Shown here in pieces: positions 7,071-39,970 of a stretch of DNA of 64,000 nucleotides. Made by a program: the position numbers and the translations under genes. Positions within the stretch are counted from its first letter, which is position 1, and each line of letters begins with the position of its first letter. The stretch lies in the NCBI GenBank assembly GCA_004431415.1, contig QPMI01000553.1, forward strand, positions 248,001 through 312,000, read 5' to 3'. The DNA comes from Cyanophora paradoxa CCMP329. Lineage: Eukaryota; Plantae; Glaucophyta. The notes under the pieces are model-generated. The model searched no databases. It had not been told where the DNA came from and was given only the letters and a program-made list of their open reading frames with translations.

Positions 7071-7126
7071 GGAAGCCTGCAGATGCTCGCTCTGTACCGT
7101 AGTACTCTTGCGTAGATCATCGGATA

Positions 7127-13100: not shown

Positions 13101-14009
13101 AACGGATACGAGTCATTTGATAGCGTGTTAGATAGGGCCTCAACGTGATTACCGGCTGCCGGGCTTCTATTCGCATTTCCTGGCGCGCGGGAAGGCCTCA
13201 AAATGCCCGCCAAAAATAATGGCGACTTGCCCTGCAAAATAATGCACGGCACGCTACGAGCTAGCTTGCGGCCTGCGCCGACCTCAAAATCAAATCCAGC
13301 ACTGTCAAGAACCCCCGAAAGCGTCTCATAGCCCGGATGTAACTTGTCAGATAAGATGCTATCCTTGGTGATTTCTGTCCTCGAGGCCTCTTCGGGGCAA
13401 GTTGACAGTCTCGGAGAGCTCGCTTGACCTGACGCCGCTCCGTCATCTGGGTCCGCGACTGACTCCACATTTGCACCCCGCCCATTTCGAGGGTGGGGAA
13501 TCCGAATCTGAAGTTCTCGTCAGCTCGTCCGTTCTCATATGCTCAGCGCGGCGACTTCGCACTTCTTTGCACATGATCATGATCATGAGTCTCTAGCTGC
13601 CATTAAAAGAATACTGGGTTCCTGGCACATGTAAGCACCCGGAGATGATATCAGCGCCCCACTGTGTATCTGTAGAGTATTTGACGAGAAGCTCAGGGCT
13701 CCCGGGCATTGCGGCGGGGAAGAACGACTCCCTTATAGGGTTTCTCCCGAGATCAATTTTGAGAGCCGATTCCCAGTCCGCCCGTGCCTTTCCAGCTCAG
13801 ATGCCAACGGATACGAGTCATTTGATAGCGTGTTAGATAGGGCCTCAACGTGATTACCGGCTGCCGGGCTTCTATTCGCATTTCCTGGCGCGCGGGAAGG
13901 CCTCAAAATGCCCGCCAAAAATAATGGCGACTTGCCCTGCAAAATAATGCACGGCACGCTACGAGCTAGCTTGCGGCCTGCGCCGACCTCAAAATCAAAT
14001 CCAGCACTG
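7127..14009. repeat. 705-bp tandem array, 9 full copies plus one partial copy
   Basis: Unit starts (TGCACCCCGCCCATTTCGAG) at 7127, 7832, 8537, 9242, 9947, 10652, 11357, 12062, 12767 and 13472; only three variable sites seen. Confidence 0.97.
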
Positions 14010-14019
14010 AGAGCCTAGT

Positions 14020-17000: not shown

Positions 17001-17480
17001 CTGCTGGGATCGGCCTCGGAGTTCATGCTTGCGGCCGCTCGGGCGCAGGTGCGGTCGTTTGCTGTCGCGCATATTTCTTCTCTTTCGATCCGAGCGCAGC
17101 GAGCTCTTCGCCCTCGCCCTCGCCCTCGCGGTCGCGGTCGCGGGCTGCCGGGCGCCTCGGAGATCATGCTTTCGGCCGCTCGGGCCGAGGTGCGGTCGTT
17201 CGCCGGCGCGGATGCTTCTTTTCTTTCGATTGAATCTCCAAGCGCAGCGAGCGCGTCGCTCTCGCCATCAGCGGACGCGGAGCGATCGCGAGCTGATCTT
17301 CTGCCTCCTCTCCTCGCCGAGGTGCATAGCCGCCTGCGTGCCGGCCTTTTCCTCTTTCCATTCGATTTAAGCTCTCGCTCACCGCGATGCGCATGGCGCA
17401 GCGAGGGCGGCGAGGTGCAGAACGACCTGGTGCGGGCCGCATCGCTTCACCCGTTATCCTCCAGCTTCTGACTCGCCCTT
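14020..17480 (-). repeat. Right internal inverted arm of element 1 (GC-rich minisatellite ~14020-15530)
   Basis: Reverse complement of 3897-7070, with a different minisatellite copy number. Confidence 0.88.
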
Positions 17481-18386: not shown

Positions 18387-20190
18387 CTCGTCAGCTGCAA
18401 GCCGGTTGGCGCCATCGAAGGCTGGCTGGCCTTCTGACCCGCGTTGGAGCCCACAGGGTACCACAAGAGGGGCGCCTTGTTGCTCGGAGAGCCAATGACT
18501 TCGCCGCTGGGCGAGATGGGCGCCACGGAGAACATTGTCTCCTCGTCGGGGTTCAGGCCAGGGTTCCGGACGACATAGGTGTTCGTAGCGGTCCGTGTCG
18601 GGTTCGGGGGCTTGACTGTCCCGATCTGCTGGCCGTCCCTGAAAATCGCATAGCCTCCAATGCCGCCAGCTGCGCCAGTAGCAGGCGTGTTCCAGGCAAG
18701 GTGACCGCTGGGATTCGGCCCGGGGCCCATCGGCTGGGCTGTGAGTGTAATGCCGGTGCTCGGATCACTCGGGAGGGCCGTAGTGAATGTGTGCGATGCC
18801 GGGCCGGCGACGCCGTTGTCGTCAAATGGTACGAGCTGCAGCTTGGTGTGCTTGCCGTTGGTGGGGAGCCCAGACAGGGGGAACTCCGTGCGGTCTCCGG
18901 AGACGGTGCCGATGGGCTCGCCATCTCTGACGACGCTGTAGCCAGCCGGCTGGCCCGCCAGGGGAGGCGTCCACAGCAGCTTGCCCGAGCCGAGCCCTGT
19001 CGCACCAATGCTCGCAAGGATCAAGTTGGATGGGGCGAGCGGGCTCGGAGCAGGGGCTTCCAGCTCGGAACCCACGAGTCCCGCGCCAATTCCGTCCGGA
19101 TCGTACGGCGTGACCAACGCGCCGCCAAGGGCACGCGAGCCTTGGCCAGCGCCCACTCCCTCGCCGGCACCGGTGCCCGAGCCAGCGCCCGTGTAAGGCT
19201 CGTACGGGGTGGTCGCCTTGCCCTTGGGGAAGATGCTGGGCACGCGGAGGGTGCCCTTGACGATCGCTGCGGTCAAACCAGCAACGAGGAGGCCAGCGGC
19301 GCCGATGCCGAACGCGAGCGGGAGGATGTGCGACATCTGGTGGTGGAAATATATATCTTAGATGGTTTATAGCGCGCACACAAAGAGTTACCTGGTTGCT
19401 GTTCCCCTGGCCGCTATCGCCCTCCTGCGGGGGGAGCTCGCCAATACCAGCGGCAAACGCCGGCTGGCTTGACGTGAAGTAGTTCGGAATGATTTGGCCA
19501 AGGGTGAACTGCACGAAGATATTAGAGGTTTATTGAAGTACAAGCTTTAAGGAAATCGTGGGGTGGCGCTTCAGACTTGCCGTGGTCTGCACGCAAATTT
19601 CATCATCAGTAACATTTCAAGCGCACCGAACCGTTTGCGTTGAAAAAAACGCACCAAATGCGTGCAGAATCCGCGAGCATACCAGATGCCCTGCATGCAA
19701 TAGTTTAAGGCAAAGAGAAAATACTTTGCCTCAGGCCGACGGTTTCGCACATTGCGTTGGAAGAGATCTCCGGCGTTCGTCGCCATGGGGTCGGGGTTGT
19801 CGGCATCTCCGAGCTGAAGCGATTAAGCACCGGCTTTCGCAACGTCTGAAAATTGTTAAAAGTATTACGCACCCACATATTGATCTTCGGCTTAAGACGC
19901 GTCTGGCACGGCTGCCAGCTTCCGGAGGTCTCGTTCCAGAAGATGAGGTACTGTTGCAGCGTGGGAATTGTTGTCTGAGTGACAGGATACGGGATCTCGA
20001 TGATGATTGGCTTGGCGTCCGCCAGACCCTCGATGCGGAATCCGAGCACCTGGGGGCAGATCCATGTTACACTCTTGTCGAGGTTTCTAGATCTTGGTAA
20101 GCGGAGCGCATATGCATACGCACCGATATGTCGACGAAGCCGCCCGTAATCTTAACGGCGCCCTGGATGCGACCTCCCTCGGGCCCCCTC
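18387..20190 (-). pseudogene. Middle part of the host gene: GAIN/GPS-like region, single transmembrane helix and first FN3-like unit
   Basis: Exons give ...IEGLADAKPIIIEIP...YLIFWNETSGSWQPC...GFCTHL...SIFVQF (GPS-like). Intron 19337-19391 joins QGNSNQ|MSHILPLAFGIGAAGLLVAGLTAAIVK (TM) in frame, followed by FN3-like repeats. Confidence 0.75.
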
Positions 20191-20473
20191 ACACATAGTA
20201 AAATGCGGAGTTTTAACCCTCGGCTTATCTTAATTGATTTTGTTGATATATCTCGTATATTCTATTTCAATCAATCGTTAATCTGTGTATATCTTATCGA
20301 ATATTCATTTATTTCGTTTATTTTGTATTCTTTTCGATATTTTATCGTAAATTTCTCTTATTTTCCGATTAGTCTTACTGAGTCTATCGATAATCTGTAT
20401 ATATTTCCGAATAATATAACTGAATCTCAATTAGATCTTGCCTCTGGTTAAAACTCCGCATTTTACTATGTGT
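20191..20473. other. Terminal 283-bp imperfect hairpin (perfect 28-bp outer stem 20191-20218 / 20446-20473)
   Basis: ACACATAGTAAAATGCGGAGTTTTAACC and its reverse complement enclose an AT-rich, partly self-complementary loop. Confidence 0.85.
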
Positions 20474-20715
20474 GATTGGTCTGTTTGTTAATTGATTTAA
20501 TCGATATTATATTCATGTACTTTCTCGATTAAATTTAATTAAATTTAATTCATTTAATCGGAAATATATCGCTAAACTCGATTAAGATCCATAAATGATT
20601 CATTTGTTAAATAAAACAAATCGATCTCTTATTGAATCCAATCGTAATTATACATGAAACTTATATGATTTTATCATTGTTTTGTTGAGTCTAAGGGGGG
20701 ACCCTTAGGAATTTG

Positions 20716-20820
20716 GGTGTCACAGGTGTCACAGGTGTCACAGGTCAATCCCAAGGAAAGTCCTAGTGAGAAATTGATTTTTAAAATCCATGGGATAGAC
20801 CTGTGACACCTGTGACACAT
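20716..20820. promoter_or_regulatory. Iteron-like module: GGTGTCACA x3, ~50-bp core, inverted TGTGACAC x2
   Basis: Repeats seen directly; origin function is inferred. Confidence 0.55.
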
Positions 20821-21560
20821 ACCATATTCAGTAAGGACCTCATTCATTGTTAAAATCTCAGTGTTAGTTGGTGTAGTTGATTCAAATGTGATCTTAGGAA
20901 TGTGATTTAAAATCTTTCAGGCAGCATTTATTTGTCAGGCATTAAATCCATCGATTTTGACAAAGTATTTTATTTTGGCAAAGTCATTGTTTGGATCAAC
21001 AATGAAATTTGAATTATAGAAAAGTTTTCTAAAAAGGTGCCTGACAATGCCTGACATACTATATAAGTGCCTGACAACTATATTATAGTGCCTGACAAAC
21101 CATATATGGTAATACTATATGATATCTTCTACTTTCTCAGTGTTAGTTGGTGTAGTTGATTCAAAAAATGCATTTATACTCTGATTCATTGTTATTTCCT
21201 GTGAAATTTGAGTCAACTCAACCCACTTAGTCAACCCTCCCATTGAATTCGTAACAAAATCCATATACTTTTACTACTTTTACGATTAATATGAGTCAAC
21301 CTTGAGTCCACTTAAATATAAATATAATATAATAGGGGGAATCAAGGGGAGATGCTGAGTGTTATTGTAAGGAAATCGAATAGTATTCGAAATACTTGAC
21401 ATTGCTTAATGTAGGGTGCATTCATATTTCGGCTACATCATACAGTAGAATTCTATTGTAACAAAAGCTACTGTAGAAAGAAAATCATTGTAGAAAGCTA
21501 TTGTAGGAAAGGATATATTATATCCTTTTTTAACGATTGCCATTGTAATAAAAAAGGTAA

Positions 21561-21695
21561 ATAGGTGAAGGTCTAAAACTTGCGTAACCACGTAACTTGC
21601 GTAACCTCTACGACATTATGGTGTCATTTCTCTATTATTTTAGGTTACGTAACGTTTTTACTTACGTAACTTGTGTAACCTTAACGTAACCTTGT
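21561..21695 (+). promoter_or_regulatory. Origin-like module, GTAAC type (half copy of 29230-29560)
   Basis: Core ATAGGTGAAGGTCTAAAACTTGCGT plus CGTAAC iterons. Confidence 0.55.
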
Positions 21696-21767
21696 TATTC
21701 TTACATTCATCATTGTTATACTATGATATCATGATAACTAAAAAAGATCTATGATAATTGCTTATCT

Positions 21768-22229
21768 TTAATGACGTAGAGATGTTAGATGTTCGCAATC
21801 AAACATTTTAAAGATCTTGCATATCTCACTTTCAGGATCGGTGACATACCATAAACGGTGTCGCTTGTCAAATAAAGCGCCTTGTTTTTGCATGTATTTA
21901 CACAATGATGCCTGGGTAAATATACGCTTTGCCTCAATCTCTGGTAGTTTTGCTTTGATATCACCAACGAAATATAGACGTTTGGGTTGATTATGATAAT
22001 CAGGATCGATAACAGTGGGGTTTATTGTAGGAAAGTGTTTTAAGATTCTATGAAACTTGTATGAAACAAACCAATACCCTGTGTCATCATCGAATTTAAC
22101 GCCACAATCTTTGATATCAAATATTGATCTGAAACAAGTATTACGGAGGTTGCTTATATCCAACAAGTAAGCGCCGTAGTAATGGTGTGGCTCGTTTGTT
22201 GTGTTTCGGAAATAAATGAATTGATCCAT
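21768..22229 (-). CDS. 153-aa protein with two DUF5710-like motifs
   Basis: IKDCGVKFDDDTGYWFV and MQKQGALFDKRHRLWYV resemble the K..GA.WD...K.WY signature; upstream AAAATTTGA. Confidence 0.7.
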   Translation of the reverse strand: MDQFIYFRNTTNEPHHYYGAYLLDISNLRNTCFRSIFDIKDCGVKFDDDTGYWFVSYKFHRILKHFPTINPTVIDPDYHNQPKRLYFVGDIKAKLPEIEAKRIFTQASLCKYMQKQGALFDKRHRLWYVTDPESEICKIFKMFDCEHLTSLRH

Positions 22230-22284
22230 TTGTAATTAGATGTTAAAAGATTGTCAAATTTTCACATTTTTCAACGGTTTTGTT

Positions 22285-22612
22285 TTGTCTTGTAACTTTG
22301 GTGTAACATTGTGTAACTTAGCTGTAACAAGAGGTGTAACTTTTGTGTTACGTTGATGTTGTGACCATTTCAGTAAGGAATTATGTGATGTTTCGTTTTA
22401 TTCTTACCATATGTAACTGTAACTTTATTTTTTGAATTCTTTTTGAGAGAACCCCCGGGGGGGTCTTTTTATAGGTGAAGGTCTAAAACTTGCGTTACAA
22501 CGTTACAACGTTACATTTCTCGATTCTGTGACCATTTTCAGTGTTCTTTTTTGGTATCTTTGTGTAACTTTACTTTTTGTTCTAAGTTACAAAGTTACAT
22601 CTAAGTTACATC
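22285..22612 (+). promoter_or_regulatory. Origin-like module, GTTAC type
   Basis: TGTAAC iterons, 25-bp core at 22471, then CGTTACA x3 and AGTTACA x3. Confidence 0.55.
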
Positions 22613-22737
22613 GTATATCTAATGTATTCTCTACTTATCATTTGTAAAAGCGAGCGAAATGTTAACATTCAGTGTAGGTTTCAGAAAAAGCAATATTGGT
22701 TTTGTTTTATTCCACAGTGTGACATAGAGGTCAAGCA

Positions 22738-23095
22738 ATGTAACACAAGGTGTAACTTTGGTATTCCCCGATGTAATAGTAGGTGTAACTTTGATATCCA
22801 AGGATGTAACACAAGGTGTAACTTTTGAGTTTCTCGATTGACAAGACCATTTTAAGTAAGGTTTAACGCAATACTTTGCTTTTTTCTTACCATGTGTAAC
22901 TGTAACTTTATTTTTTGAATTCTTTCTGAAAGAACCCCTGGGGGGTCTTTTTATAGGTGAAGGTCTAAAACTTGCGTTACAGCGTTACAGCGTTACACCT
23001 ATCGTATTTCTTACCATTTTCAGTATTCTTTTTTAGTATCTTAGTGTAACTTTACTTTTTGTTCTAAGTTACAAAGTTACATTTGAAGTTACAGC
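22738..23095 (+). promoter_or_regulatory. Origin-like module, GTTAC type
   Basis: Core at 22953; same architecture as the 22285-22612 module. Confidence 0.55.
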
Positions 23096-23209
23096 ATTTA
23101 TCACTGTCTATATCTCATCAATTGCAAGTCTGAAAAGGCCATGACTGTGATGAAAAAATGAAACATATGTTAAACTTAAACCAAACAGATATATAACGGA
23201 ATATACAAT

Positions 23210-23686
23210 ATGAACGCGTCGGATATTCTGACCTACATTAAGAGTATTACCCATATTCCTGTTCTCATCGATGCTGACCTATCTTTAAAGAAGGCAAACC
23301 CTAACACTATCTGTATTGTGCCGTATGATATTAAATATCGTGCGTATTTCGAAATGTTTCGTAAAAACTCGGGATATTCACCTAATACCCGTTTCGTCTG
23401 CTTTCTTACATTAGAGACTCATTATATTCTCGTTCCTGTTCTAACTGAAACATCGTGTAAATTGTTTATCTCTAAGATCATCTCTAAATGGTCTACTAAC
23501 CTACCTGCTGAATCTAATGAAACTAAGGAGTGCGTCATATGTCTCGATGACTGTAAAAGTAAAATACAAATGTCTTGTTTGACATGTTTCGCCAAAATGT
23601 GCAACACATGCTTTTTACAGTTGAAGAAGTCGGAGACCTTTAAATGTCCAATCTGTCGTAATGACATAAAGACGCAACGTGATTAA
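23210..23686 (+). CDS. RING-finger protein (putative E3 ubiquitin ligase), 158 aa
   Basis: C-terminal CVIC...CLTC-x4-CNTC...CPICR. Confidence 0.85.
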   Translation: MNASDILTYIKSITHIPVLIDADLSLKKANPNTICIVPYDIKYRAYFEMFRKNSGYSPNTRFVCFLTLETHYILVPVLTETSCKLFISKIISKWSTNLPAESNETKECVICLDDCKSKIQMSCLTCFAKMCNTCFLQLKKSETFKCPICRNDIKTQRD

Positions 23687-23738
23687 TGTAAAAATTGATG
23701 GAAGATAAAAGTTTTTCTGATCTGACATGAAATAGAAA

Positions 23739-23921
23739 ATGAATAATGGACATTGGGTAACTTTGGCGACATTGCATAATAAGAAGATTGAGCTTATCCA
23801 TCGGGAGGTTGACCTTAAACACACAAAAAGACAAGACCATGAAAGACTACAAAATGTTAAACAGTATATTGATGCAATCGATGTAATGATAGATGTAGTG
23901 AATACAATCGCTAAAAATTAA
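23739..23921 (+). CDS. Small helical hypothetical protein, 60 aa
   Basis: ATG preceded by AAAATTGA at 23691; fits the compact gene packing. Confidence 0.5.
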   Translation: MNNGHWVTLATLHNKKIELIHREVDLKHTKRQDHERLQNVKQYIDAIDVMIDVVNTIAKN

Positions 23922-23963
23922 GACCATGTGAATTTCATCGCGCTTGCGCAAGCGCTATTTTTA

Positions 23964-24263
23964 TTACTTCTGTGTCCGGTTTTCAAGCTTCTGCCTCAAT
24001 CTGAATGTTATAACGCTACCATCATGGCGTGCCTTTCCCCTTTGAATCGCTTTCGATACTTCCCCGGGTGTGTTCTCGTCGAAATCAATGAATCGGGAAA
24101 CCTTCTTTTTAAACTGTCTCTGTAAATATCCGGGTAGTTGGTTGACATTACACCCGTCGTTTTTCTTAACAAGGTTCTCATAAATAATACTACTGCGGTC
24201 ATCATGTGATAAATCAGGATTTTGAAGCTGTTCTATGAAAGCGTCGGGAATCTGTGAAGTCAT
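23964..24263 (-). CDS. Hypothetical protein, 99 aa
   Basis: ATG start with AAAATTGA 33 bp upstream (24296-24303, minus strand). Confidence 0.65.
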   Translation of the reverse strand: MTSQIPDAFIEQLQNPDLSHDDRSSIIYENLVKKNDGCNVNQLPGYLQRQFKKKVSRFIDFDENTPGEVSKAIQRGKARHDGSVITFRLRQKLENRTQK

Positions 24264-24319
24264 CGTGGGTTATCCTGTCTGTTTTTTGCGGGTTGTCAAT
24301 TTTTTCAGGAAGCCAAACA

Positions 24320-24632
24320 GGTGTAACTTTTGATAACAGCGGTGTAACTCAGGGTGTAACTTTTGTGTTTCACGATGATTGAGACCATTTTTAGTAATGT
24401 GAAAGGACAATTTTCGATTATTTTCACACGAGCGTAACTGTAACTTTACTTTTTTGAATTCTTTCTAAAATAATGCCCGGGGGACTTTTTATAGGTGAAG
24501 GTCTAAAACTTGCGTTACAGCGTTACAACGTTACAGCTATCGACTCTGTGACCATTTTCAGTATTCTTTTTGGTATCTTTGTGTAACTTTACTTTTTGTT
24601 CTAAGTTACAAAGTTACATTTTGAGTTACAGT
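24320..24632 (+). promoter_or_regulatory. Origin-like module, GTTAC type
   Basis: Core at 24491; same architecture. Confidence 0.55.
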
Positions 24633-24649
24633 ATAATACATTCTTCTTC

Positions 24650-25186
24650 TTATTCATTTGCATATAACTTAGGCTCTAATGCTTCCATTCCGTCAAAAAA
24701 TAGTTTAGTTCTACAAACCGAACACTTAACATTCTCATGTGATTCAAGTAAAGAGAAGAAACACTTAGGACAAATAAGAGTATTGCAAACGATACACCCT
24801 TTATTACTTATATTGGTGTCAATTTTTTCAAGACAGATAGGACATGTTTCATTCGGACTCTCAAAGTTTTCCCTCGTGAATGACTTAATAATGATTTCCA
24901 CGAACCATTTGGTGTTCTCAATATCAAGATATGGGACTAACATGTAACGATGTTTATATGAGAATGCAAAACGAATAGGTTGAAGGGCATGATATCCCGC
25001 CTTTTCTTTCCATGCATCAAATACCCCTTTATTCTTGCGGTTCTGTTGAATAAAGTATATAATCTGTCTTTCGTTGGCTTTCATTAAGAACTTTGTATAA
25101 TTCTTATCATTCAGTTTATCTGATGCATTGACTACGGGATATGGCGAAATAGACCGTGAAAACGTCAATATATCGTTTAAATTCAT
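24650..25186 (-). CDS. RING-finger protein, 178 aa, paralogue of 23210-23686
   Basis: CPIC...CIVC-x4-CPKC...CSVCR; N-terminus MNLNDILTFSRSISPYPV vs MNASDILTYIKSITHIPV. Confidence 0.85.
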   Translation of the reverse strand: MNLNDILTFSRSISPYPVVNASDKLNDKNYTKFLMKANERQIIYFIQQNRKNKGVFDAWKEKAGYHALQPIRFAFSYKHRYMLVPYLDIENTKWFVEIIIKSFTRENFESPNETCPICLEKIDTNISNKGCIVCNTLICPKCFFSLLESHENVKCSVCRTKLFFDGMEALEPKLYANE

Positions 25187-25225
25187 TGGGTTGTGCTACT
25201 ATCTGTTACAGTTTCTTTAATTCTC

Positions 25226-25504
25226 TTAGGTTTTTTCGATATCAAACACTCTTTTAAGAACGCCATCAATTCTTACAGCATGGGATTTAATCCCGAAAAT
25301 GCGCTTAATCATGGTTGCGACCGCTTTTTTTGAAATCGGAAAGTCCACAAGCTCTTCTATTTCAGCATGGATATAATCAGAAGGTGTATAATCACCGTCA
25401 TTACTTAACCTGTAACTATGCATTAAATACGCTTCCACATCGGACATCTCATGTTGATATTTGCCCATTTCCGTTTCATCCATAACAATTTCGATGTATT
25501 CCAT
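25226..25504 (-). CDS. Stand-alone winged-helix-like protein similar to the C-terminal domain of the element's primase-helicase, 92 aa
   Basis: SDVEAYLMHSYRLSND..Y...ISKKAVATMIKRIFGIKS...IDGVLKRVF aligns by eye with SDRIGTFLRDNYALAED..Y...ITGRAVSNKVMEVFKIGS...VGGKSKRVY. Confidence 0.7.
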   Translation of the reverse strand: MEYIEIVMDETEMGKYQHEMSDVEAYLMHSYRLSNDGDYTPSDYIHAEIEELVDFPISKKAVATMIKRIFGIKSHAVRIDGVLKRVFDIEKT

Positions 25505-25653
25505 GTTACACTTAACTGTTACAGCTTAAATTTTTGTTACAAGTTTGACGGTTGATGTCCAAAAATTGACACCATACAACACACAAGGTATTTAAGGGTT
25601 TGACTTAAAAGAGAAGTGAAAGGGATATTATCTAACTCTTATATAGAGGAATA

Positions 25654-26103
25654 ATGGCGAATACTCGGAAATCAAACCAAGAGCTTCTCGCTATTCAGAA
25701 TGGGGAACCTGTCCCACAGGTTGAAAGTAATATAAAGAAGGGAAAAACAATAATATCTGAGGAAGAACGGGAAGAAAAGGCAAGAATAAGAAGGGCAAAA
25801 GATGCGGAGAGGAAGCGTGTTAAGTATCAGGAGATGAAACAACAGAGACTCGCAAATGGTGAGAAAACGGTTAATCCACCTGAGAGATTAGAAAAGATGG
25901 CTTTGTATATTCAGCGACGATATGCGAAGGATGAAGAATTTAGAAACAGAAGGAAAGAGATAACGAGGAACTACCAAGAACGAAAACGCCTCGAAAAGGC
26001 TTCTAAGGTAACTGAGCAAGAGACAGCAAAGAAAGGGGGACGACCTCGTAAATACAATGCTTGTAATCCCGATGCATCATCGGAAAAAATCGTAGCGAAT
26101 TGA
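25654..26103 (+). CDS. Basic/charged helical protein, 149 aa (possible nucleic-acid binding; C-terminal KGGRPRK AT-hook-like motif)
   Basis: Long ORF with AAAATTGA at 25562; K/R/E-rich. Confidence 0.75.
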   Translation: MANTRKSNQELLAIQNGEPVPQVESNIKKGKTIISEEEREEKARIRRAKDAERKRVKYQEMKQQRLANGEKTVNPPERLEKMALYIQRRYAKDEEFRNRRKEITRNYQERKRLEKASKVTEQETAKKGGRPRKYNACNPDASSEKIVAN

Positions 26104-26282
26104 TTGGTAGGAGGTGAAAAAATGACGCTTTACTTTCTCTTTTTTATAACCTAAGCCAAATCATTAAAGTGCCGTGGGCAACCGAAAAGCATTTAAGGAC
26201 ATCCTGAGAAGATAAGGTAAAAAGGAATTCATCAATTCCTCGGATTATTTTCTCTGAGAAAGTTAAGAACCAATCGCTGAAA

Positions 26283-29166
26283 ATGAACGCTAACACGAAA
26301 ATCGCAACTCCCTGTGACAGACTCGGTAACCTGTGCAAGTTTACACCTGAGAAACATAATTACGGGACTTTCCTCCATTGTCTCACTCCGAATACTGACA
26401 CGGACACTGAGACTGTCATAGAGTATTTCGACCATCAGATTACGGAAAGGATTAAGGATGATTTGAAGAAAGGCAAAAAACCGACCTACGCCGAATGCAT
26501 TCAGCCAAACGAAATTACCCGTGTCTATCTGGATTATGACGGCTATGTGGATCTTAAACCCGATGTTGCCGATAACTACAAGGAAGCCGAGGAATTCATT
26601 CGTGGAATGCGCAAGAGACTACACGAACTCACCGGTGCTACCATTGCTGTATCTGTGCGGCATCGTTGTGTTTATTTCGTGAAGGAAGATGTGACCCAAT
26701 TCAAGGTATCGGGGCATTTCGTCTTTACCGATCTGTGCTGTCGTCATGAAGACATCCCGAAATTCTTAAATGTAATCGGACTTACGCCAAATGTCGATTA
26801 TGACCCGCTCGTTTATAAGACAAGGCAGGCGCTTGTTTGTCTGGGTAGTTGCAAGGGGAAATGGTTGGATTCCCAAAACAAAACTAAACGCGATGTTGAT
26901 AAGGATGTAGTATTTACCAAGTTTGTGGATTGCGAAAGCATGTATGACAGCGACTTTTTCGCGCAATTCACCGATTGCCCCACTGTGCTTATCGATGAAT
27001 CAAACATGTATATGTTTGATGCTAACCTAACCCAAGATGAGAAAAACGAACGGTCGGCAAAGGCGAAAGTTGCAGAAGAGCAGATGAAGGAGGAAGGCAA
27101 GACTGAAACCAAGAAGGAGACCGCAACCACGACCAAGAAGGAGACGACCAAGACAACCAAGAAGGAGACGGCGACGACAAGCAAAAAAACAACAAAGAAA
27201 ACGGAGAGTGAAGAGCAGCCGGAGGAGTCCAATAACGTTTCATTTGAGAAACTGAGAGAAGTCGTGATGGGTCTCAGTGCTGAAAGATCGGATACATACG
27301 AAGGTTGGCTTAATGTTGGTTTCGCAATCGCGAATGTTGGAGAGGAAAACAAGATACCACCCGCGAAACAGGAGGCGCTGTTTCACGAATACTCCGAGAA
27401 AAGCCCTAAGTATGATTATGACGAATCCGCGAGCAAATGGGCAAGTATCCGTAAAGGCAAAAAATCCGGTTCCGAAAACAAAACTATAACTTTCGGCTCA
27501 CTTGTGCATTATCTGAAAGAGGATAACCCGGACAAATATTATGAACTGTTTAAACCAAGCCGACAGTTTGCATTTATCGATGAACAGATATGTGTGGAGG
27601 AAAAAGACTATTTCGACGTTAGCGCCATGAATGATAAGATGGCTCAAATCAAATTAGAAATGGATAAGACGCTATTAAGTAAAGGTCTCCCACTTCCTGT
27701 TAGCAAGATATGTAAAGCATTAATTGGCTACAAAGTGCGGTTTTCACGTGGTCTGTGGTTGATCCTGAATGAGAAAACCGGATTTTGGAAGGTAGACAAT
27801 AAGTATGATGGTGGTATGATAAGTCTTATCGGTGAGGTGGTCGGGAAAGCATACTTAGACCGGGAGAACTATTGGACTACCAAGGCGGCAAAGGCGGAGG
27901 AACAGAGCGATAAAAAAGAGTTTGCAGGAAAGGCAACCGCCTGTGCAATTATTGCGGCAAAACTTAACGGCGGAGCATACACGAAAGGACTTCTTACATA
28001 TCTATCTCATGACCTTTACGATGAGACATTTGCCGATAGGTTGGATTCAGTCGCGAATGTTGTCGGCTTTGACGATGGGTTTATGATCTTAACACGTTTG
28101 AATTCCGTCATGGTCGTTCTTCTGATATGATGACTAAAACAGTCTGTTATAACTATGATATTCCGGTGGATCCTGAGAAGGTCAAACGGCTCAATGACTT
28201 CTATATGGATATCACGGGCGACAATGTCGAACTTTGCAATTACATTAAGGCTGTTTATGCCAAGTCTCTAACGGGTAAAATAACATGCAGTTTTTCTATA
28301 TGTTTACGGGTATCGGCTCGAACGGAAAGAGCGTAATCGAAAATTTCATGCATAAGACATTTGGCGACTACTCACGAAATATGAGCATTGGGATTTTCAC
28401 GAAGGAGGATAAAGGTAATGGAATGATTCCGGAACTTGCGAATAAGCAAGGTGTTAGGCTCGTCCATACAAACGAACCAAACACGGGTAGCAAACTGTTG
28501 TCGGGACAAATCAAGAATTTCACAGGTTGTGATGAGATCACAGTAAGAACCCTTTTCAGAGAACCCATTTCATTCGTTCCGATGTTTGTTATCGTCATCC
28601 TCTGTAATAATAACCTCGAATTTGATCAGCCCGACAATGCAGTAGCGCGCCGCTTCCGTTCTGTTCCATTTCAGCAGGTCTATGCCGTCGAACCTAAGCC
28701 CGGACAGAAGAAAGCGGATAAAGACCTTACAGGGTTGTTGAATCCCGATAATGACGTAAATGGTGAATGGCGCAGGGCAAACATGGAGATTCTCATAGAC
28801 ATGCTTAAAAACCATAATGTTAATCATATTATCGACCATCCGCCCCAATGCATCCTCGAACATTCCGCTAATTATCTCGCGGACAGCGACCGTATCGGCA
28901 CATTCCTAAGGGACAACTACGCTTTGGCGGAGGATAACACGAAATACATAATATGTGACGATCTGTTTAAGGATTGCTCCAATACGATGCGAGATGTTGA
29001 TAGAAGAGCAGCGATAACAGGACGAGCTGTAAGCAATAAGGTGATGGAGGTGTTTAAGATCGGCTCGACTGTTAAAAAGGTTGGTGGAAAATCGAAGCGT
29101 GTTTATCTCGGTCTCACAAAGAACCGCGCTAACGATTTCGAAGACGATGACGAAGGTGTGGAATAA
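26283..29166 (+). CDS. D5-like primase-helicase, left copy, with two apparent homopolymer frameshifts (~28078, ~28279)
   Basis: Identical to 34492-37377 except GGG vs GGGG and AAAA vs AAAAA. Confidence 0.88.
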
Positions 29167-29229
29167 AACTAATTGGAAAATATACTATTGATATCTTTTT
29201 TATGATCATGAACCGTAAGACTCGGTTCT

Positions 29230-29560
29230 TAATAGAAGGTTACTTTAAGGTTACTCGGAGTTACTCCGGGTTACTCGGAGTTACTCAGAGAGGTTACGTA
29301 GCGTTTCCCGTTGATCATTACCATTTTCAGTGTTGATATACCGAATTTCTCTTTATTTCACAAGTGGGAGTTACGGTTACGCAACTTTTTGAATTCTTTC
29401 TGAAAATTTTGAGGGGGGTCTTTTTATAGGTGAAGGTCTAAAACTTGCGTAACCGCGTAACTTGCGTAACCTCTACGACATTATGGTGTCGTTTCTCTAT
29501 TATTTTGGGTTACGTAACCTTTTTACTTACGTAACTTGTGTAACCTTAACGTAACCTTCT
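29230..29560 (+). promoter_or_regulatory. Origin-like module, GTAAC type, directly downstream of the helicase gene
   Basis: GTTAC iterons at 10-bp spacing, core at 29426, then CGTAAC iterons. Confidence 0.6.
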
Positions 29561-29702
29561 TATTAATACATCGATATCATATGTTCTCTCTCGCTCTTCT
29601 TTGTTGCCGTTATAGAATGTAGGTAAGACATCGGAAAATCTGAAAAAAATGACATCTTAACTACATATAAGGTTGTTGTGATATATTGAATTGATAATTA
29701 AG

Positions 29703-29927
29703 ATGGCTTGCAAACTCTCCGAAGGCATCGACATGGGCGAATATCTCATTAAAGACCTTCCGGAAGAGTTAAAACCTCTTGCTCGCAAGATGGACTTAAA
29801 AGGAATACGAGAATACTATGAGAGAACCTACCCCGATTTATACAAGAAAAAGCGACGTGTCGAATCATCGGAATTCATCACTGTTAAGGTTCCAAAAGGC
29901 GTAAAGGTCAGAATTCAGAGAATCTAA
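29703..29927 (+). CDS. Hypothetical protein, 74 aa
   Basis: ATG 29703 with AAAAAAATGA at 29643. Confidence 0.6.
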   Translation: MACKLSEGIDMGEYLIKDLPEELKPLARKMDLKGIREYYERTYPDLYKKKRRVESSEFITVKVPKGVKVRIQRI

Positions 29928-29991
29928 CACGCTGAATAATATAAAAAACATTTGTAACACATGATTAATAGAAACCAAAAGAACATTTAAA

Positions 29992-30309
29992 ATGAAGCGG
30001 TTCTATGCTATCAGAGAGCATGACGCCCTTCTTTTTTATACGCGATTCTTTGAGAATCCAGAAAACAGATGTATGGATAAATTCGAAGACTTCTGTAAAG
30101 AATTTACTCAAATCGCTTATGGTAACACTGAAATACGGAGACCATCAAGAAAGCAAAAATTAAAAGACCTTTTTCAAAACATGCTTTTGTCATTTGATGC
30201 TGATAATAGAAATACTGAATATCATAATACAGTCACAGGATCTGTTAGGGAACGTCTCCAAGAGAAATTAGCAAAACGAAGAATATCACAATGTGTGACC
30301 TATTGTTAA
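29992..30309 (+). CDS. Hypothetical protein, 105 aa
   Basis: AAAATG start; compact packing. Confidence 0.6.
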   Translation: MKRFYAIREHDALLFYTRFFENPENRCMDKFEDFCKEFTQIAYGNTEIRRPSRKQKLKDLFQNMLLSFDADNRNTEYHNTVTGSVRERLQEKLAKRRISQCVTYC

Positions 30310-30556
30310 ACGCACTTTAAAAAGGGTCTTTTTTGCAAACCTCCACAGGATCGTGTAGGTTTATGTTTCGATCTACGCAAACAGCTACAATGTACTGTAT
30401 AGGTAGTTTTGAGAGTAAAAACGTTTAACCTACTGTTAAACGCACTTTAAAAGGGTCTTTTTTGCAAACCTCCACAGGATCGTGTAGGTTTATGTTTCGA
30501 TCTACGCAAACAGCTACAATGTCCTGTATGGGTAGTTTTGAAAATTAAAGCGTTTT
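30298..30556. repeat. ~130-bp tandem dimer between convergent genes (mirror at ~33103-33361)
   Basis: ACCTA(T/C)TGTTAAACGCACTTTAAAA... starts at 30298 and 30428. Confidence 0.9.
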
Positions 30557-31002
30557 CACTCTTTCCTGTTCCGATAACATTCGCATTCTGAAAGAAACGA
30601 CCTTAATATTAACTTCCTTATTGCGTCGCGACCTTCCCAATTGTTGTGATCTTTACCCAAAAGTTTGACAAAGTCTAAGATATGGATAAACTCGGGACGC
30701 GATATATCATTAGGTAAATCAAACGGCTCCGTTTCTATTTCCCAATAATTCACTTTGTAGAAATATAACAAACCGTCAGATCCCTTAGCATAGTGTATAT
30801 CGGGATTCTCAGTGAAATATCCGATTTGCTCAATTTTCCATATTATGTCGCTATTATCTAATTCATTCATAAACATTATCAATCTGTCGATATTGATTTT
30901 AATTAAGGAAGTATTAACTGAAAACACGGGTTTTCCGTTGTAGATATACGGCGTCTCCATCATTGCAATCAATCTTAGCACGAGCGTTAGGATGTCTCCC
31001 AT
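30556..31002 (-). CDS. Hypothetical protein, ~148 aa (likely start MGDILT)
   Basis: The second ATG is preceded by AAAAAATGA (31019-31027, minus strand). Confidence 0.65.
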   Translation of the reverse strand: MGDILTLVLRLIAMMETPYIYNGKPVFSVNTSLIKINIDRLIMFMNELDNSDIIWKIEQIGYFTENPDIHYAKGSDGLLYFYKVNYWEIETEPFDLPNDISRPEFIHILDFVKLLGKDHNNWEGRDAIRKLILRSFLSECECYRNRKE

Positions 31003-31276
31003 GCCGCTTAAATGGTTTTCATTTTTTGCCCGCTCAAAAATTGACGCCCCACAAGAACAAACCATAACCTGTAATGCAACGCTCTGTTATTTATGGTCGA
31101 ATCTAATGATGCTACATATGTATTTGTCGAAAAAGAGAATTAACACACTCTAAACCTCTTTCGAAATGCTATAATCCACATTGTTTACTTTTCACTTTGT
31201 GAAAAATCCCTTTTGTATGTGGAAATATCGCGGAACAAATTTATTTAAAAGTATAACAGTTTATAGTTTTAATAAG

Positions 31277-32422
31277 ATGCCTGTAAAAGATACAACCGAG
31301 AGTTTTGTAGAAAAGGCAAAAGCCAAGCATGGAGACAAATATAACTACGCCAATGTAGAATACATTGATAACTCAACAAGGGTTTCGATAGTTTGCCTTT
31401 CTTGCAAAACAGTGATTACTCAAACACCCCATGACCATTTATCAGGTTGCGGGTGTAAATTGTGTAAAATCCAAACAATTAAAGATAAAAATAGACATAC
31501 CAAAGAAGAGTTTATAGAAAGAGCGAAAGCAAAGCACGGTGAACAGTATGGATATGATGAGGTCGACTATATTAACAGTCAAACAAAGGTTAAAATCTAT
31601 TGCTTTGAATGCAATCATTTTTATTTTCAAACGCCAAACAGTCATATAATGGGGAGTGGATGTCCCCAAAAAGGCATTAAAACAATGAAACAAAAGCAGA
31701 GATTGACAAAAGACACATTTGTTGCAAAGGCAACAGAAGCCCATAATGGAAAATATGATTATCAGCATGCAGACTATGTGAATTCAAAAGTAAAAGTTAA
31801 GATACAGTGTCTGACTTGTGAGCAATTCTTTTTAATGGAACCGGCAAACCATTTAAGCGGACAGGGTTGTAAACATTGTAGTCATAGAAAACGTTCCGAG
31901 ACTTTCAGGTTAACAACGCGACAGTTTGTAGAAAAAGCAAGAGAGGTGCATGGAGATGATTATGATTACTCAAAGGTCAATTATATTGATTCGAAAACAA
32001 AAGTTAACCTAACTTGCCGAAAATGTAATAGTGAGTTCTCTCAGGTTCCAAATTATCATCTTTCACAAAAAAGCGGCTGTCCCCACTGTAAATCATCACA
32101 TGGAGAACGGGAAATAAAAAGGTATTTAGAAGATTTGGACATTGCTCACAAGACAGAGTATATGTTTTCTGATTGCTTTTATAAAAATAAATTGAGGTTT
32201 GACTTTTTCATACCAAGCCTGAACATTGTTATAGAGTTTGACGGTCAACAACATTTTGAACCTGTTAAGTGGTTTGGGGGAGAAGAAGGATTTAAAATAA
32301 CACAGATTAGAGATGGAATTAAAAACAGATACTGTGAGACTCATAATTTAAAGCTTTTAAGAATACCATACACTGAAAAAAACATAAAAGGATGTATTGA
32401 CCAATTCTTAAAGACTCTCTGA
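31277..32422 (+). CDS. Four DUF723-like Zn-ribbon repeats plus C-terminal Vsr/DUF559-like PD-(D/E)xK endonuclease
   Basis: Repeats T.E.F..KA...HG..Y.Y..V.Y..S.TKV.I.C..C...F.Q.P..H..G.GC; C-terminus SHGE...LRFDFFIP...IEFDGQQH...RD..KN.YC...LLRIPY. Confidence 0.88.
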   Translation: MPVKDTTESFVEKAKAKHGDKYNYANVEYIDNSTRVSIVCLSCKTVITQTPHDHLSGCGCKLCKIQTIKDKNRHTKEEFIERAKAKHGEQYGYDEVDYINSQTKVKIYCFECNHFYFQTPNSHIMGSGCPQKGIKTMKQKQRLTKDTFVAKATEAHNGKYDYQHADYVNSKVKVKIQCLTCEQFFLMEPANHLSGQGCKHCSHRKRSETFRLTTRQFVEKAREVHGDDYDYSKVNYIDSKTKVNLTCRKCNSEFSQVPNYHLSQKSGCPHCKSSHGEREIKRYLEDLDIAHKTEYMFSDCFYKNKLRFDFFIPSLNIVIEFDGQQHFEPVKWFGGEEGFKITQIRDGIKNRYCETHNLKLLRIPYTEKNIKGCIDQFLKTL

Positions 32423-32656
32423 AAAAAAAGATATTTCCACATACAAAAGGGATTTTTCACAAAGTGAAAAGTAAACAATGTGGATTATAGCATTTCGAAA
32501 GAGGTTTAGAGTGTGTTAATTCTCTTTTTCGACAAATACATATGTAGCATCATTAGATTCGACCATAAATAACAGAGCGTTGCATTACAGGTTATGGTTT
32601 GTTCTTGTGGGGCGTCAATTTTTGAGCGGGCAAAAAATGAAAACCATTTAAGCGGC

Positions 32657-33103
32657 ATGGGAGACATCCTAACGCTCGTGCTAAGATTGATTGCAATGAT
32701 GGAGACGCCGTATATCTACAACGGAAAACCCGTGTTTTCAGTTAATACTTCCTTAATTAAAATCAATATCGACAGATTGATAATGTTTATGAATGAATTA
32801 GATAATAGCGACATAATATGGAAAATTGAGCAAATCGGATATTTCACTGAGAATCCCGATATACACTATGCTAAGGGATCTGACGGTTTGTTATATTTCT
32901 ACAAAGTGAATTATTGGGAAATAGAAACGGAGCCGTTTGATTTACCTAATGATATATCGCGTCCCGAGTTTATCCATATCTTAGACTTTGTCAAACTTTT
33001 GGGTAAAGATCACAACAATTGGGAAGGTCGCGACGCAATAAGGAAGTTAATATTAAGGTCGTTTCTTTCAGAATGCGAATGTTATCGGAACAGGAAAGAG
33101 TGA
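32657..33103 (+). CDS. Hypothetical protein (mirror of 30556-31002)
   Basis: Identical translation. Confidence 0.65.
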   Translation: MGDILTLVLRLIAMMETPYIYNGKPVFSVNTSLIKINIDRLIMFMNELDNSDIIWKIEQIGYFTENPDIHYAKGSDGLLYFYKVNYWEIETEPFDLPNDISRPEFIHILDFVKLLGKDHNNWEGRDAIRKLILRSFLSECECYRNRKE

Positions 33104-33349
33104 AAACGCTTTAATTTTCAAAACTACCCATACAGGACATTGTAGCTGTTTGCGTAGATCGAAACATAAACCTACACGATCCTGTGGAGGTTTGCAAAAA
33201 AGACCCTTTTAAAGTGCGTTTAACAGTAGGTTAAACGTTTTTACTCTCAAAACTACCTATACAGTACATTGTAGCTGTTTGCGTAGATCGAAACATAAAC
33301 CTACACGATCCTGTGGAGGTTTGCAAAAAAGACCCTTTTTAAAGTGCGT

Positions 33350-33666
33350 TTAACAATAGGTCACACATTGTGATATTCTTCGTTTTGCTAATTTCTCTTG
33401 GAGACGTTCCCTAACAGATCCTGTGACTGTATTATGATATTCAGTATTTCTATTATCAGCATCAAATGACAAAAGCATGTTTTGAAAAAGGTCTTTTAAT
33501 TTTTGCTTTCTTGATGGTCTCCGTATTTCAGTGTTACCATAAGCGATTTGAGTAAATTCTTTACAGAAGTCTTCGAATTTATCCATACATCTGTTTTCTG
33601 GATTCTCAAAGAATCGCGTATAAAAAGAAGGGCGTCATGCTCTCTGATAGCATAGAACCGCTTCAT
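33350..33666 (-). CDS. Hypothetical protein (mirror of 29992-30309; homopolymer indel near 33622)
   Basis: Identical except T5 vs T6. Confidence 0.55.
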
Positions 33667-33730
33667 TTTAAATGTTCTTTTGGTTTCTATTAATCATGTG
33701 TTACAAATGTTTTTTATATTATTCAGCGTG

Positions 33731-33955
33731 TTAGATTCTCTGAATTCTGACCTTTACGCCTTTTGGAACCTTAACAGTGATGAATTCCGATGATTCGACA
33801 CGTCGCTTTTTCTTGTATAAATCGGGGTAGGTTCTCTCATAGTATTCTCGTATTCCTTTTAAGTCCATCTTGCGAGCAAGAGGTTTTAACTCTTCCGGAA
33901 GGTCTTTAATGAGATATTCGCCCATGTCGATGCCTTCGGAGAGTTTGCAAGCCAT
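33731..33955 (-). CDS. Hypothetical protein (mirror of 29703-29927)
   Basis: Identical translation. Confidence 0.6.
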   Translation of the reverse strand: MACKLSEGIDMGEYLIKDLPEELKPLARKMDLKGIREYYERTYPDLYKKKRRVESSEFITVKVPKGVKVRIQRI

Positions 33956-34491
33956 CTTAATTATCAATTCAATATATCACAACAACCTTATATGTAGTTA
34001 AGATGTCATTTTTTTCAGATTTTCCGATGTCTTACCTACATTCTATAACGGCAACAAAGAAGAGCGAGAGAGAACATATGATATCGATGTATTAATAAGA
34101 AGGTTACGTTAAGGTTACACAAGTTACGTAAGTAAAAAGGTTACGTAACCCAAAATAATAGAGAAACGACACCATAATGTCGTAGAGGTTACGCAAGTTA
34201 CGCGGTTACGCAAGTTTTAGACCTTCACCTATAAAAAGACCCCCCTCAAAATTTTCAGAAAGAATTCAAAAAGTTGCGTAACCGTAACTCCCACTTGTGA
34301 AATAAAGAGAAATTCGGTATATCAACACTGAAAATGGTAATGATCAACGGGAAACGCTACGTAACCTCTCTGAGTAACTCCGAGTAACCCGGAGTAACTC
34401 CGAGTAACCTTAAAGTAACCTTCTATTAAGAACCGAGTCTTACGGTTCATGATCATAAAAAAGATATCAATAGTATATTTTCCAATTAGTT

Positions 34492-37377: not shown

Positions 37378-37556
37378 TTTCAGCGATTGGTTCTTAACTT
37401 TCTCAGAGAAAATAATCCGAGGAATTGATGAATTCCTTTTTACCTTATCTTCTCAGGATGTCCTTAAATGCTTTTCGGTTGCCCACGGCACTTTAATGAT
37501 TTGGCTTAGGTTATAAAAAAGAGAAAGTAAAGCGTCATTTTTTCACCTCCTACCAA

Positions 37557-38005
37557 TCAATTCGCTACGATTTTTTCCGATGATGCATCGGGATTACAAG
37601 CATTGTATTTACGAGGTCGTCCCCTTTCTTTGCTGTCTCTTGCTCAGTTACCTTAGAAGCCTTTTCGAGGCGTTTTCGTTCTTGGTAGTTCCTCGTTATC
37701 TCTTTCCTTCTGTTTCTAAATTCTTCATCCTTCGCATATCGTCGCTGAATATACAAAGCCATCTTTTCTAATCTCTCAGGTGGATTAACCGTTTTCTCAC
37801 CATTTGCGAGTCTCTGTTGTTTCATCTCCTGATACTTAACACGCTTCCTCTCCGCATCTTTTGCCCTTCTTATTCTTGCCTTTTCTTCCCGTTCTTCCTC
37901 AGATATTATTGTTTTTCCCTTCTTTATATTACTTTCAACCTGTGGGACAGGTTCCCCATTCTGAATAGCGAGAAGCTCTTGGTTTGATTTCCGAGTATTC
38001 GCCAT
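37557..38005 (-). CDS. Mirror of 25654-26103 (G4 vs G5 indel near 37622)
   Basis: Identical up to the homopolymer. Confidence 0.7.
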
Positions 38006-38154
38006 TATTCCTCTATATAAGAGTTAGATAATATCCCTTTCACTTCTCTTTTAAGTCAAACCCTTAAATACCTTGTGTGTTGTATGGTGTCAATTTTTGG
38101 ACATCAACCGTCAAACTTGTAACAAAAATTTAAGCTGTAACAGTTAAGTGTAAC

Positions 38155-38432
38155 ATGGAATACATCGAAATTGTTATGGATGAAACGGAAATGGGCAAAT
38201 ATCAACATGAGATGTCCGATGTGGAAGCGTATTTAATGCATAGTTACAGGTTAAGTAATGACGGTGATTATACACCTTCTGATTATATCCATGCTGAAAT
38301 AGAAGAGCTTGTGGACTTTCCGATTTCAAAAAAGCGGTCGCAACCATGATTAAGCGCATTTTCGGGATTAAATCCCATGCTGTAAGAATTGATGGCGTTC
38401 TTAAAAGAGTGTTTGATATCGAAAAAACCTAA
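38155..38432 (+). CDS. Mirror of the winged-helix-like ORF 25226-25504 (A6 vs A7 indel near 38330)
   Basis: Identical up to the homopolymer. Confidence 0.65.
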
Positions 38433-38471
38433 GAGAATTAAAGAAACTGTAACAGATAGTAGCACAACCCA

Positions 38472-39693: not shown

Positions 39694-39735
39694 TAAAAAT
39701 AGCGCTTGCGCAAGCGCGATGAAATTCACATGGTC

Positions 39736-39918: not shown

Positions 39919-39970
39919 TTTCTATTTCATGTCAGATCAGAAAAACTTTTATCTTCCATCAATTTTTACA

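Follow-up and report, generated by a model that had tools for sequence, protein, structure and literature searches.

A 23.3-kb element in the analysed window (64,000 nucleotides of Cyanophora paradoxa CCMP329; positions below are those of the window) carries five modules of short opposed repeats in each of its two mirrored arms. Judged from their sequence and from analogy with characterized replicons, these modules probably serve a self-loading D5-type primase-helicase as repeated loading sites, or origins, and come in two sequence specificities.

Organization and Conservation of the Modules

The sequence-only reading had reported an invariant 25-bp core five times per arm. The core was found exactly on the + strand at 21561, 22471, 22953, 24491, and 29426 and mirrored on the − strand at 42072, 41162, 40680, 39143, and 34208, which makes ten copies; allowing up to five substitutions revealed no others, and 4e-11 copies per arm are expected by chance. 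The core forms one arm of an imperfect dyad, and its final two bases belong to the first repeat. As that reading had also described in outline, each core is followed by three repeats 8–9 bp apart, a gap of 43–54 bp, an inverted repeat lying 15–17 bp from its neighbor, and three more repeats. The opposed repeats that it placed upstream of four cores are those of M2–M5, in which the left half holds two opposed repeats about 50 bp upstream and 2–6 others about 135–210 bp upstream. M2–M5 have opposed sets of penta- or hexameric iterons, at least two per side, and M1 has them on the right side only. In left-arm coordinates (all +), M1 (21561–21692; mirror 41965–42096) is the right half of an A-type module without a left half; M2 (22291–22610; mirror 41047–41366), M3 (22739–23093; mirror 40564–40918), and M4 (24322–24630; mirror 39027–39335) are full B-type modules; and M5 (29238–29557; mirror 34100–34419) is a full A-type module. 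Full modules measure 309–355 bp.

When the B modules were aligned, a check that the earlier reading had proposed, invariant columns made up 65 of 66 in the repeats and 28 of 28 in the core, compared with 106 of 179 in the spacers (p = 2e-11). Spacer divergence among the modules amounts to 13–30% although the repeats are unchanged, a pattern that implies long-term selection for binding. There is no AT-rich core of the kind cited for phage P4 alpha and SaPI Rep: AT content between the inner repeats is 61–73% against 63% for the arm, and the AT-rich patches are T-tracts flanking the repeats. Two further regions are origin-like by layout only. T1 (20717–20830) combines opposed TGTCAC/GTGACA repeats with the spacer motif of the modules, and its alignment to the B modules (p = 0.014) involves that motif only. 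In T2 (20932–21100), a TATAG..TCTAAAA stretch is surrounded by TGTCAG/CTGACA repeats that oppose each other; no alignment above chance was obtained between T2–T4 and the modules.

Two Repeat Words

In module orientation, word A reads R[C/A]GTAACY (24 sites, in M1 and M5) and word B reads R[A/C]GTTACA (39 sites, in M2–M4). The words differ at two positions, the flanking bases switch along with the word, and no module mixes them (24/24 A sites and 39/39 B sites are pure); this purity, together with the concerted change of flanking bases, points to selection by two readers. The flip between GTAAC and GTTAC that had been noted at every iteron does hold as a word change at every position, but it is not one of polarity: if A were inverted B, a T would precede GTAAC as in 37 of 39 sites, and it does so in 2 of 24 A sites (p = 1e-12). 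An apparent third repeat word in the consensus of loose contig ends was rejected as a tool artefact because an exact overlay of M4 and M2 recreates it.

The Primase-Helicase, M5, and ORF92

The intact primase-helicase (34492–37377, − strand; 961 aa) has the architecture AEP-PriCT2-D5N-SF3 by Pfam and PHROGs; its left-arm copy (26283–29166) is in two pieces, broken at homopolymer runs. The predicted model ends in an alpha-beta-alpha-alpha-beta-beta topology (pLDDT about 80–88), from which the C-terminus (residues about 860–950) is predicted to be a winged helix; folded alone from a single sequence, this domain reached a pLDDT of 45, too low for use. The best Foldseek match of the model was ASFV PrimPol (E = 7.5e-26). 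M5 lies directly downstream, 72 bp after the helicase stop, and M1–M4 do not. M5 is likely the cognate candidate origin of the adjacent helicase, and word B, carried by six modules, is probably not preferred by it; the best reading is that a sister winged helix likely reads B.

A candidate for such a reader is ORF92 (25226–25504, − strand; 92 aa). It is probably a paralogue of the helicase winged helix that stands on its own and differs in its wing; the homology is moderate. Its score against a close-clade profile (17.1/12.5 bits) exceeds those of 500 shuffles, broad profiles gave weaker scores (hhalign 41%), and its global alignment was bettered by 1 of 2000 shuffles. Pairwise BLASTP gave no match, and no homologues were found by word search or in the PDB. 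Three B words abut the ORF92 start codon (25505–25541, +; cluster chance p ~ 8e-4).

Extent and Gene Content of the Element

The element (20191–43466) consists of 11,041-bp inverted arms (20191–31229 and 32430–43466; mirror copies 99.95% identical) and a 1.2-kb unique center, and its GC content of about 0.36 compares with 0.52–0.83 in the surrounding host DNA. It is flanked by a 6-bp target-site duplication (TSD; 20185–20190, +, and 43467–43472), and its in silico deletion leaves a 99-aa minus-strand host frame open across the insertion site. Short-read contigs span the left junction and the center in 4/4 runs. The terminal 283-bp unit (20191–20473), closed by a 28-bp inverted repeat, is hairpin/MITE-like (fold z = −10) and begins a high-copy end of about 1.37 kb common to many other elements; summed contig depth over 20003–21505 is 150–250x host single copy, a figure inflated by overlapping contigs.

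Element ORFs are all shorter than 180 aa except the helicase and the nuclease. The latter, in the center (31181–32422, +), is homing-endonuclease-like, with zinc-finger repeats and an endonuclease domain (Pfam DUF4379; PHROG 559/681). Pfam also identified one RING-finger ORF between M3 and M4 (23210–23686, +), a second ending at M4 (24650–25186, −), and, weakly, DUF5710 in the 153-aa ORF153 between M1 and M2 (21768–22229, −). No major capsid protein or packaging ATPase was matched (12 element ORFs against Pfam, 11 against PHROGs), no rve integrase or tyrosine recombinase was found among the element ORFs in the same databases, and ORF169 had no match in Atlas. The motif AAAA[AT]TGA, a degenerate pattern picked post hoc from the sequence, stands upstream of 6/12 genes (random 1.07, p = 3e-4); it is described as a giant-virus early promoter and, in the literature available, also for Gezel-14T and a transpoviron.

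Other Family Copies in Short-Read Contigs

Contig joints 22248->29370, 24285->29370, and 21699/29564->24647, which occur in 3–4 of 4 runs, place modules of type A in slots 2 and 4 of other copies, where the described copy has B, so that module type swaps between copies while the flanking genes stay about 95% alike. The point where other elements depart from M1 is precisely the first base of the core (among the matches listed, 3/4 runs have loose ends at 21562), and M1 is a hybrid with its breakpoint there. In 3/4 runs, a second helicase allele, 10–14% different across the C-terminal region, parts from the window at 29220, immediately ahead of the A array.

Comparison with Viral Loci and Known Systems

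Searches with the core and for helicase loci found no close relative of the element beyond the host species. The core had 0 matches in viral contigs; its 19-mer had 8 in metagenomes, all without repeats and taken as chance, and its upstream part had 4, likewise without repeats. The direct search for helicase loci returned none, and the helicase-locus search P0002 gave three giant-virus loci, all without arrays. In viral contigs that contain three consecutive GTTACA, 21 of 36 loci with opposed arrays had no long ORF ending nearby; among the other 15, the ORF was a replicative helicase in nine (DUF927 in five, which are close kin, VapE in two, and D5 in two) and no recognized helicase in six. 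Loci without opposed arrays had a replicative helicase in 1/13. In locus L039, the B spacing recurs almost unchanged. The PLV-like L057 has the same wing motif at 21% identity and GTTAC..GTAAC repeats in A orientation, and its relatives L138/L139 have a different helicase end and CCATCAC repeats. The wing motif is present in two helicase-like proteins, and for one of them, L134, no array lies within 520 bp of it. None of the 73 giant-virus D5 loci most like the element helicase has an opposed array behind the gene, the one apparent array being a microsatellite. Reiterated modules with mixed words were absent in 79/80 comparison loci and were not found in the literature searched.

Baculovirus hrs and defective genomes carry several dispersed origin-like repeats per genome, possibly as origin and enhancer, but their architecture and proteins are other than those of the element and they are not known to have mixed helicase specificities.

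A close origin layout is that of SaPI/PICI islands (Rep or fused PriRep5 with ori). As far as the available text describes it, the SaPI origin lies immediately downstream of rep, spans about 300 bp, and comprises opposed sets of 6–12 penta- or hexameric iterons to which the C-terminal winged helix binds (PMC9371898); the inverted iterons are separated by 15–17 AT-rich bp (bioRxiv 10.64898/2026.10.17.759575). The element shares the SF3 primase-helicase with a C-terminal winged helix (here predicted), the opposed short-repeat block of similar length right behind the gene, and the inverted repeat 15–17 bp from its neighbor. However, the islands are described with one ori each and a long AT-rich center, whereas the element has five modules per arm (ten cores), two words, a center that is not AT-rich, and a eukaryotic host.

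The element also resembles PLVs and virophages with a D5 primase-helicase, reported from cryptophyte PLVs, Halocafeteria elements, and Gezel-14T. The available accounts share with it a low-GC insert (14–40 kb), TIRs, a 5–6 bp TSD, an AEP-S3H replicase, a homing-type nuclease, a terminal palindrome, and AAAATTGA promoters. The element differs in having no capsid, ATPase, or integrase gene and in arms of 11 kb, above the 8-kb TIR limit of one survey; capsid-less PLV/virophage remnants with TIRs and TSDs are on record, and iteron origins for this group were not found in the literature available. The mobile D5-like helicases of entomopoxvirus TIRs and PLVs are likewise repeat-flanked, with nuclease neighbors and replicon turnover near TIRs, but the available text proposes the TIR itself as origin and mentions neither iterons nor specificity variants (PMC11296320). 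Transpovirons, too, are linear and lack a capsid, and they share TIRs, a helicase, and early promoters of the giant-virus kind; they are episomes of about 7 kb carried in giant-virus particles, with no AEP-D5 fusion noted in the text available (PMC11788076), whereas the element measures 23.3 kb and is host-integrated with a TSD.

Interpretation of the Modules

Taken together, the layout, the position of M5, the selective conservation, the phage- and PLV-type parallels, and the independence from gene orientation favor the earlier proposal that the modules are origin-like and bound by a helicase. Its count of ten origins stands for the cores, but five of these are mirrored, two belong to half modules, and six carry word B. 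The element, mirror-duplicated and lacking capsid and integrase genes, would derive from a family of Polinton-like/virophage type that is copied during giant-virus infection. The D5-type primase-helicase would load itself at the reiterated modules, with M5 (A) serving the adjacent helicase and the sister winged helix reading B, and extra origins fitting more than one helicase may confer a replication advantage. A wider version, which we put forward tentatively, is a 'key-ring' replicon with origins of several specificities (A, B, and the TGTCAC and CTGACA words of the shared ends), of which the B origins would be gated or jammed by ORF92; whichever sister element or helper provides the helicase could then copy the element.

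It is rather unlikely that M5 is the sole origin and that M1–M4 are origin-derived operators or enhancers, with ORF92 binding B and controlling its own gene and the promoters adjoining M2–M4. The B words at its start codon, its similarity to the helicase winged helix, and the short distances of M3 and M4 from the AAAA[AT]TGA motifs of RING1 and ORF99 (20–60 bp) and of M2 from the ORF153 start (about 60 bp) fit such control; yet M2–M4 retain the core and a two-sided layout beyond an operator's needs, A modules fill slots 2 and 4 in other copies, and the homology of ORF92 is only moderate. We regard as more doubtful still a single helicase reading both words, which would make all eight full modules equivalent origins. 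The invariant core is common to all modules, GTWAC is a near-palindrome, the two words differ at two positions, and SaPI Rep1, according to the text available, discriminates poorly between origins in vitro (PMC9371898), so that one helicase might read both words, but the words are never mixed and their flanking bases co-change.

The modules could also be joints at which origin-initiated strand invasion copies modules and shuffles gene cassettes, making them by-products rather than selected origins. They are direct repeats flanking gene blocks, the breakpoint of the hybrid M1 coincides with the start of the core, and copies with similar flanking genes differ in module type; in addition, D5 helicases that are mobile and flanked by repeats have been reported from entomopoxvirus TIRs and from PLVs (PMC11296320, in the text available); however, the drift of spacers around fixed repeats implies lasting selection for binding and makes this explanation improbable. 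Promoters, terminators, or an assembly artefact are the least probable of all. Although all modules are intergenic and M3 and M5 have modest folds (z = −3.0 and −2.4), M1, M2, and M4 have none, the promoter motifs are separate from the modules, and module orientation is uniform while flanking genes run in both directions; an artefact is largely excluded by the recovery of the modules, the left junction, and the center in independent short-read contigs.

The replication start of D5-bearing PLVs and virophages is undefined in the literature available, in which one paper proposes the TIRs. With M5 the element provides a discrete candidate origin, together with a natural A/B specificity switch on one scaffold and two candidate reader domains for the A/B code, so that one set of binding assays would cover the origin, the code, and the hoarding of origins. 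Origin hoarding may be a mode of competition among capsid-less elements, and the wider 'key-ring' version, if true, would mean parasitism and interference at the level of origins among endogenous Polinton-like elements.

Organization and Conservation of the Modules

The 25-bp core (25-mer) reported by the sequence-only reading was found exactly at all five proposed positions of one arm (modules M1–M5; 21561, 22471, 22953, 24491, and 29426, plus strand), with five more copies mirrored on the minus strand; a sequence search returned no further copy with up to 5 substitutions, and the chance expectation is 4e-11 copies per arm. The repeat layout described there also agreed with our repeat mapping: the core is followed by three repeats 8–9 bp apart, a 43–54 bp gap, one inverted repeat, and three more, and in M2–M5 a pair of opposed repeats also lies some 50 bp upstream, plus 2–6 others at a pitch of about 10–12 bp. 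Full modules measure 309–355 bp, and M1 is a right half only. The module feature is real. Its earlier interpretation as two polarities of one iteron around an AT-rich core had to be abandoned. Read in module orientation, M1 and M5 carry word A (R[C/A]GTAACY, 24 sites) and M2–M4 carry word B (R[A/C]GTTACA, 39 sites), two different words never mixed inside one module. An inverted B would place a T before GTAAC in 37/39 sites, and this was found in 2/24 A sites (p=1e-12), so A is rejected as inverted B. The module centre is not AT-rich but an imperfect dyad, and T-tracts adjoin the repeats.

Across M2–M4, the invariant columns amounted to 65/66 in the repeats, 28/28 in the core, 22/24 in the spacer motif ACCATTTT, and 106/179 elsewhere (p=2e-11). 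The conservation of repeats, core, and spacer motif against a variable remainder indicates that these modules are probably old copies with a putative binding function under selection.

Element Structure, Ends, and Host Setting

The modules lie in a low-GC insert of 23,276 bp (20191–43466); its two 11,041-bp arms flank a 1.2-kb centre and are the same except for six homopolymer indels. It forms a near-perfect 23-kb palindrome (11-kb arms) about a homing-endonuclease-like gene. A 6-bp duplication lies on both sides, and removal of the insert restores a 99-aa open host frame across the site. The host appears to be eukaryotic, as a domain scan detected REJ and fn3 fragments in its DNA. The host exon split by the insertion is on the minus strand, within a REJ-domain gene region (polycystin/GAIN-like by eye; 19705–20190 and 43473–49000). 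In 4/4 runs, one contig at single-copy depth joined host DNA to the left end of the element, and another ran through the centre into both arms; therefore, the insertion (at the left junction) and the central inversion are no artefact of this assembly. The depth of the centre contig is about 2x that of a diverged relative present in single copy; the genome may therefore hold a second identical centre. More than half of the arm's words were present in 20 of the 24 runs listed (18 studies, one organism label throughout).

The host flank contains a second large inverted structure (3896–17480), possibly a foldback-type transposon, whose arms of about 3.2 kb (92%), with GC-rich 40-bp repeats, enclose ten 705-bp tandem copies. 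A host tandem array with units of about 151–157 bp occupies 57731–58440.

The interior of the element is present in about 5–10 copies, and its first 1.37 kb is common to a much larger family, with a summed depth of 150–250x single copy that is inflated by overlapping contigs. In this high-copy end (20191–21560), the terminal unit is hairpin/MITE-like and 283 bp long; the end also contains a stack of opposed-repeat blocks built on other words, among them T1 (20717–20830, TGTCAC) and T2 (20932–21100, CTGACA); the same 30-bp stretch follows T1 (20857) and T2 (21136). T1 is the only block of the shared ends having a motif in common with the modules (p=0.014). The other end blocks gave no alignment with the modules, so that the opposed-repeat blocks are candidate origins by layout. 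The start of the M1 core is the exact point where other elements diverge from this one, so M1 appears to be a product of recombination at the core, in agreement with the replicon-replacement model outlined for PLVs (PMC11296320).

Genes and Promoter Motifs

The element encodes a primase-helicase of 961 aa (AEP-PriCT2-D5N-SF3 in domain and profile scans) with ASFV PrimPol as its nearest fold, a C-terminal winged helix predicted in the structure model, and best relatives at 31–37% identity. It also carries genes for a zinc-finger endonuclease, at the centre, and for two RING proteins, along with small ORFs. The 12 element ORFs scanned gave no hit to a capsid, ATPase, or integrase gene. The element is similar to the PLV/virophage remnants presented in PMC12220804 and bioRxiv 10.64898/2026.07.28.741278, but it is without both of their defining genes, capsid and integrase. 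A direct duplication of about 129 bp (30300–30540) lies just past the ends of ORF105/ORF169.

A role of the modules as promoters or terminators was rejected, since all five point the same way among neighbour genes running both ways, and genes have motifs of their own. AAAA[AT]TGA occurs within 200 nt of 6/12 genes, against 1.07 at random and 1 on the opposite strand (p=3e-4, a value limited by the pattern having been picked after looking at the sequence). AAAATTGA is described as a giant-virus early promoter in Gezel-14T (bioRxiv 2022.07.28.501842) and in a transpoviron (PMC11788076), and this likeness suggests that the element genes are expressed in a giant-virus factory.

Candidate Readers of the Two Words

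Joints from 22248 and from 24285 to 29370 were recovered in 4/4 runs at about 5–7x single copy, and a joint from 21699/29564 to 24647 was also found, where short contigs leave deletion possible. They indicate that other copies hold an A module in slot 2 and another in slot 4, with the intervening genes about 95% alike, which points to A as the majority word, paired with the majority helicase.

For word B, a sister helicase or ORF92 (25226–25504, minus strand) could act as the reader, and both are possible together. A second helicase allele at about 2x single-copy depth differs in the C-terminal region at 30/286 and 27/190 bases; in 3/4 runs it departs from the sequence of the window at 29220, immediately ahead of the A array. 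ORF92 aligned over its full length to close-clade winged helices with 17.1 bits, or 12.5 when the window helicase was left out, against a maximum of 9.2 in 500 shuffles; its global alignment to the winged helix outscored 1999/2000 shuffles, and three B words adjoin its start codon (p of about 8e-4). With broader profiles the signal fell to 8.2 bits, no higher than the best shuffle, hhalign gave 41%, and BLASTP gave no match between ORF92 and the helicase winged helix. We give about half of the weight to the sister helicase, about a third to ORF92, and the rest to the same helicase reading both words.

Modules as Putative Replication Origins

SaPI origins are described as blocks of roughly 300 bp in which opposed penta/hexamer iterons, bound by the C-terminal winged helix, lie immediately behind rep (PMC9371898); inverted iterons 15–17 AT-rich bp apart are the proposed sites where melting begins (bioRxiv 10.64898/2026.10.17.759575). 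The same geometry is seen in M5, which begins 72 bp after the helicase. The modules would resemble the SaPI origin in their working, but they have neither its single origin nor its AT-rich centre.

Outside the element, at least 121 viral contigs had three consecutive GTTACA, and the 80 with flanks were used. Among the matches listed, opposed arrays occurred at 36/80 loci and an ORF of at least 250 aa ended nearby at 29/80; 28 were scanned after dropping one duplicate, and a replicative helicase was found at 9/15 listed loci with opposed arrays versus 1/13 without, five of the nine being close kin. Contig L039 nearly reproduces the B spacing, with similar core edges. L057, a 15-kb PLV-like contig with packaging-ATPase-like and nuclease-like ORFs by inspection, has the wing motif too despite 21% overall identity, and a single array (5800–6080) of GTTAC..GTAAC repeats in the A orientation lies behind its helicase. 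Contigs L138, likewise PLV-like, and L139 share the N-terminus of L057 and have a different helicase end and CCATCAC repeats, in L138 as a single array behind the helicase (6290–6450). In L134, which has the wing motif at the protein end, no array was found within 520 bp of the motif. Giant-virus D5 loci had no array behind the gene either (0/73; one pass was a microsatellite), and this result counts against generality.

In the literature searched, mainly papers outside subscription journals, iteron origins that are both reiterated and of mixed words were not described for elements of this kind. Among the matches listed, a single cluster was present at 43/80 loci and two adjacent clusters at one, and none had clusters dispersed within 6 kb; reiteration is the unusual part of the system. 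The modules are rather likely to be reiterated helicase-loading sites, putative origins of two specificities.
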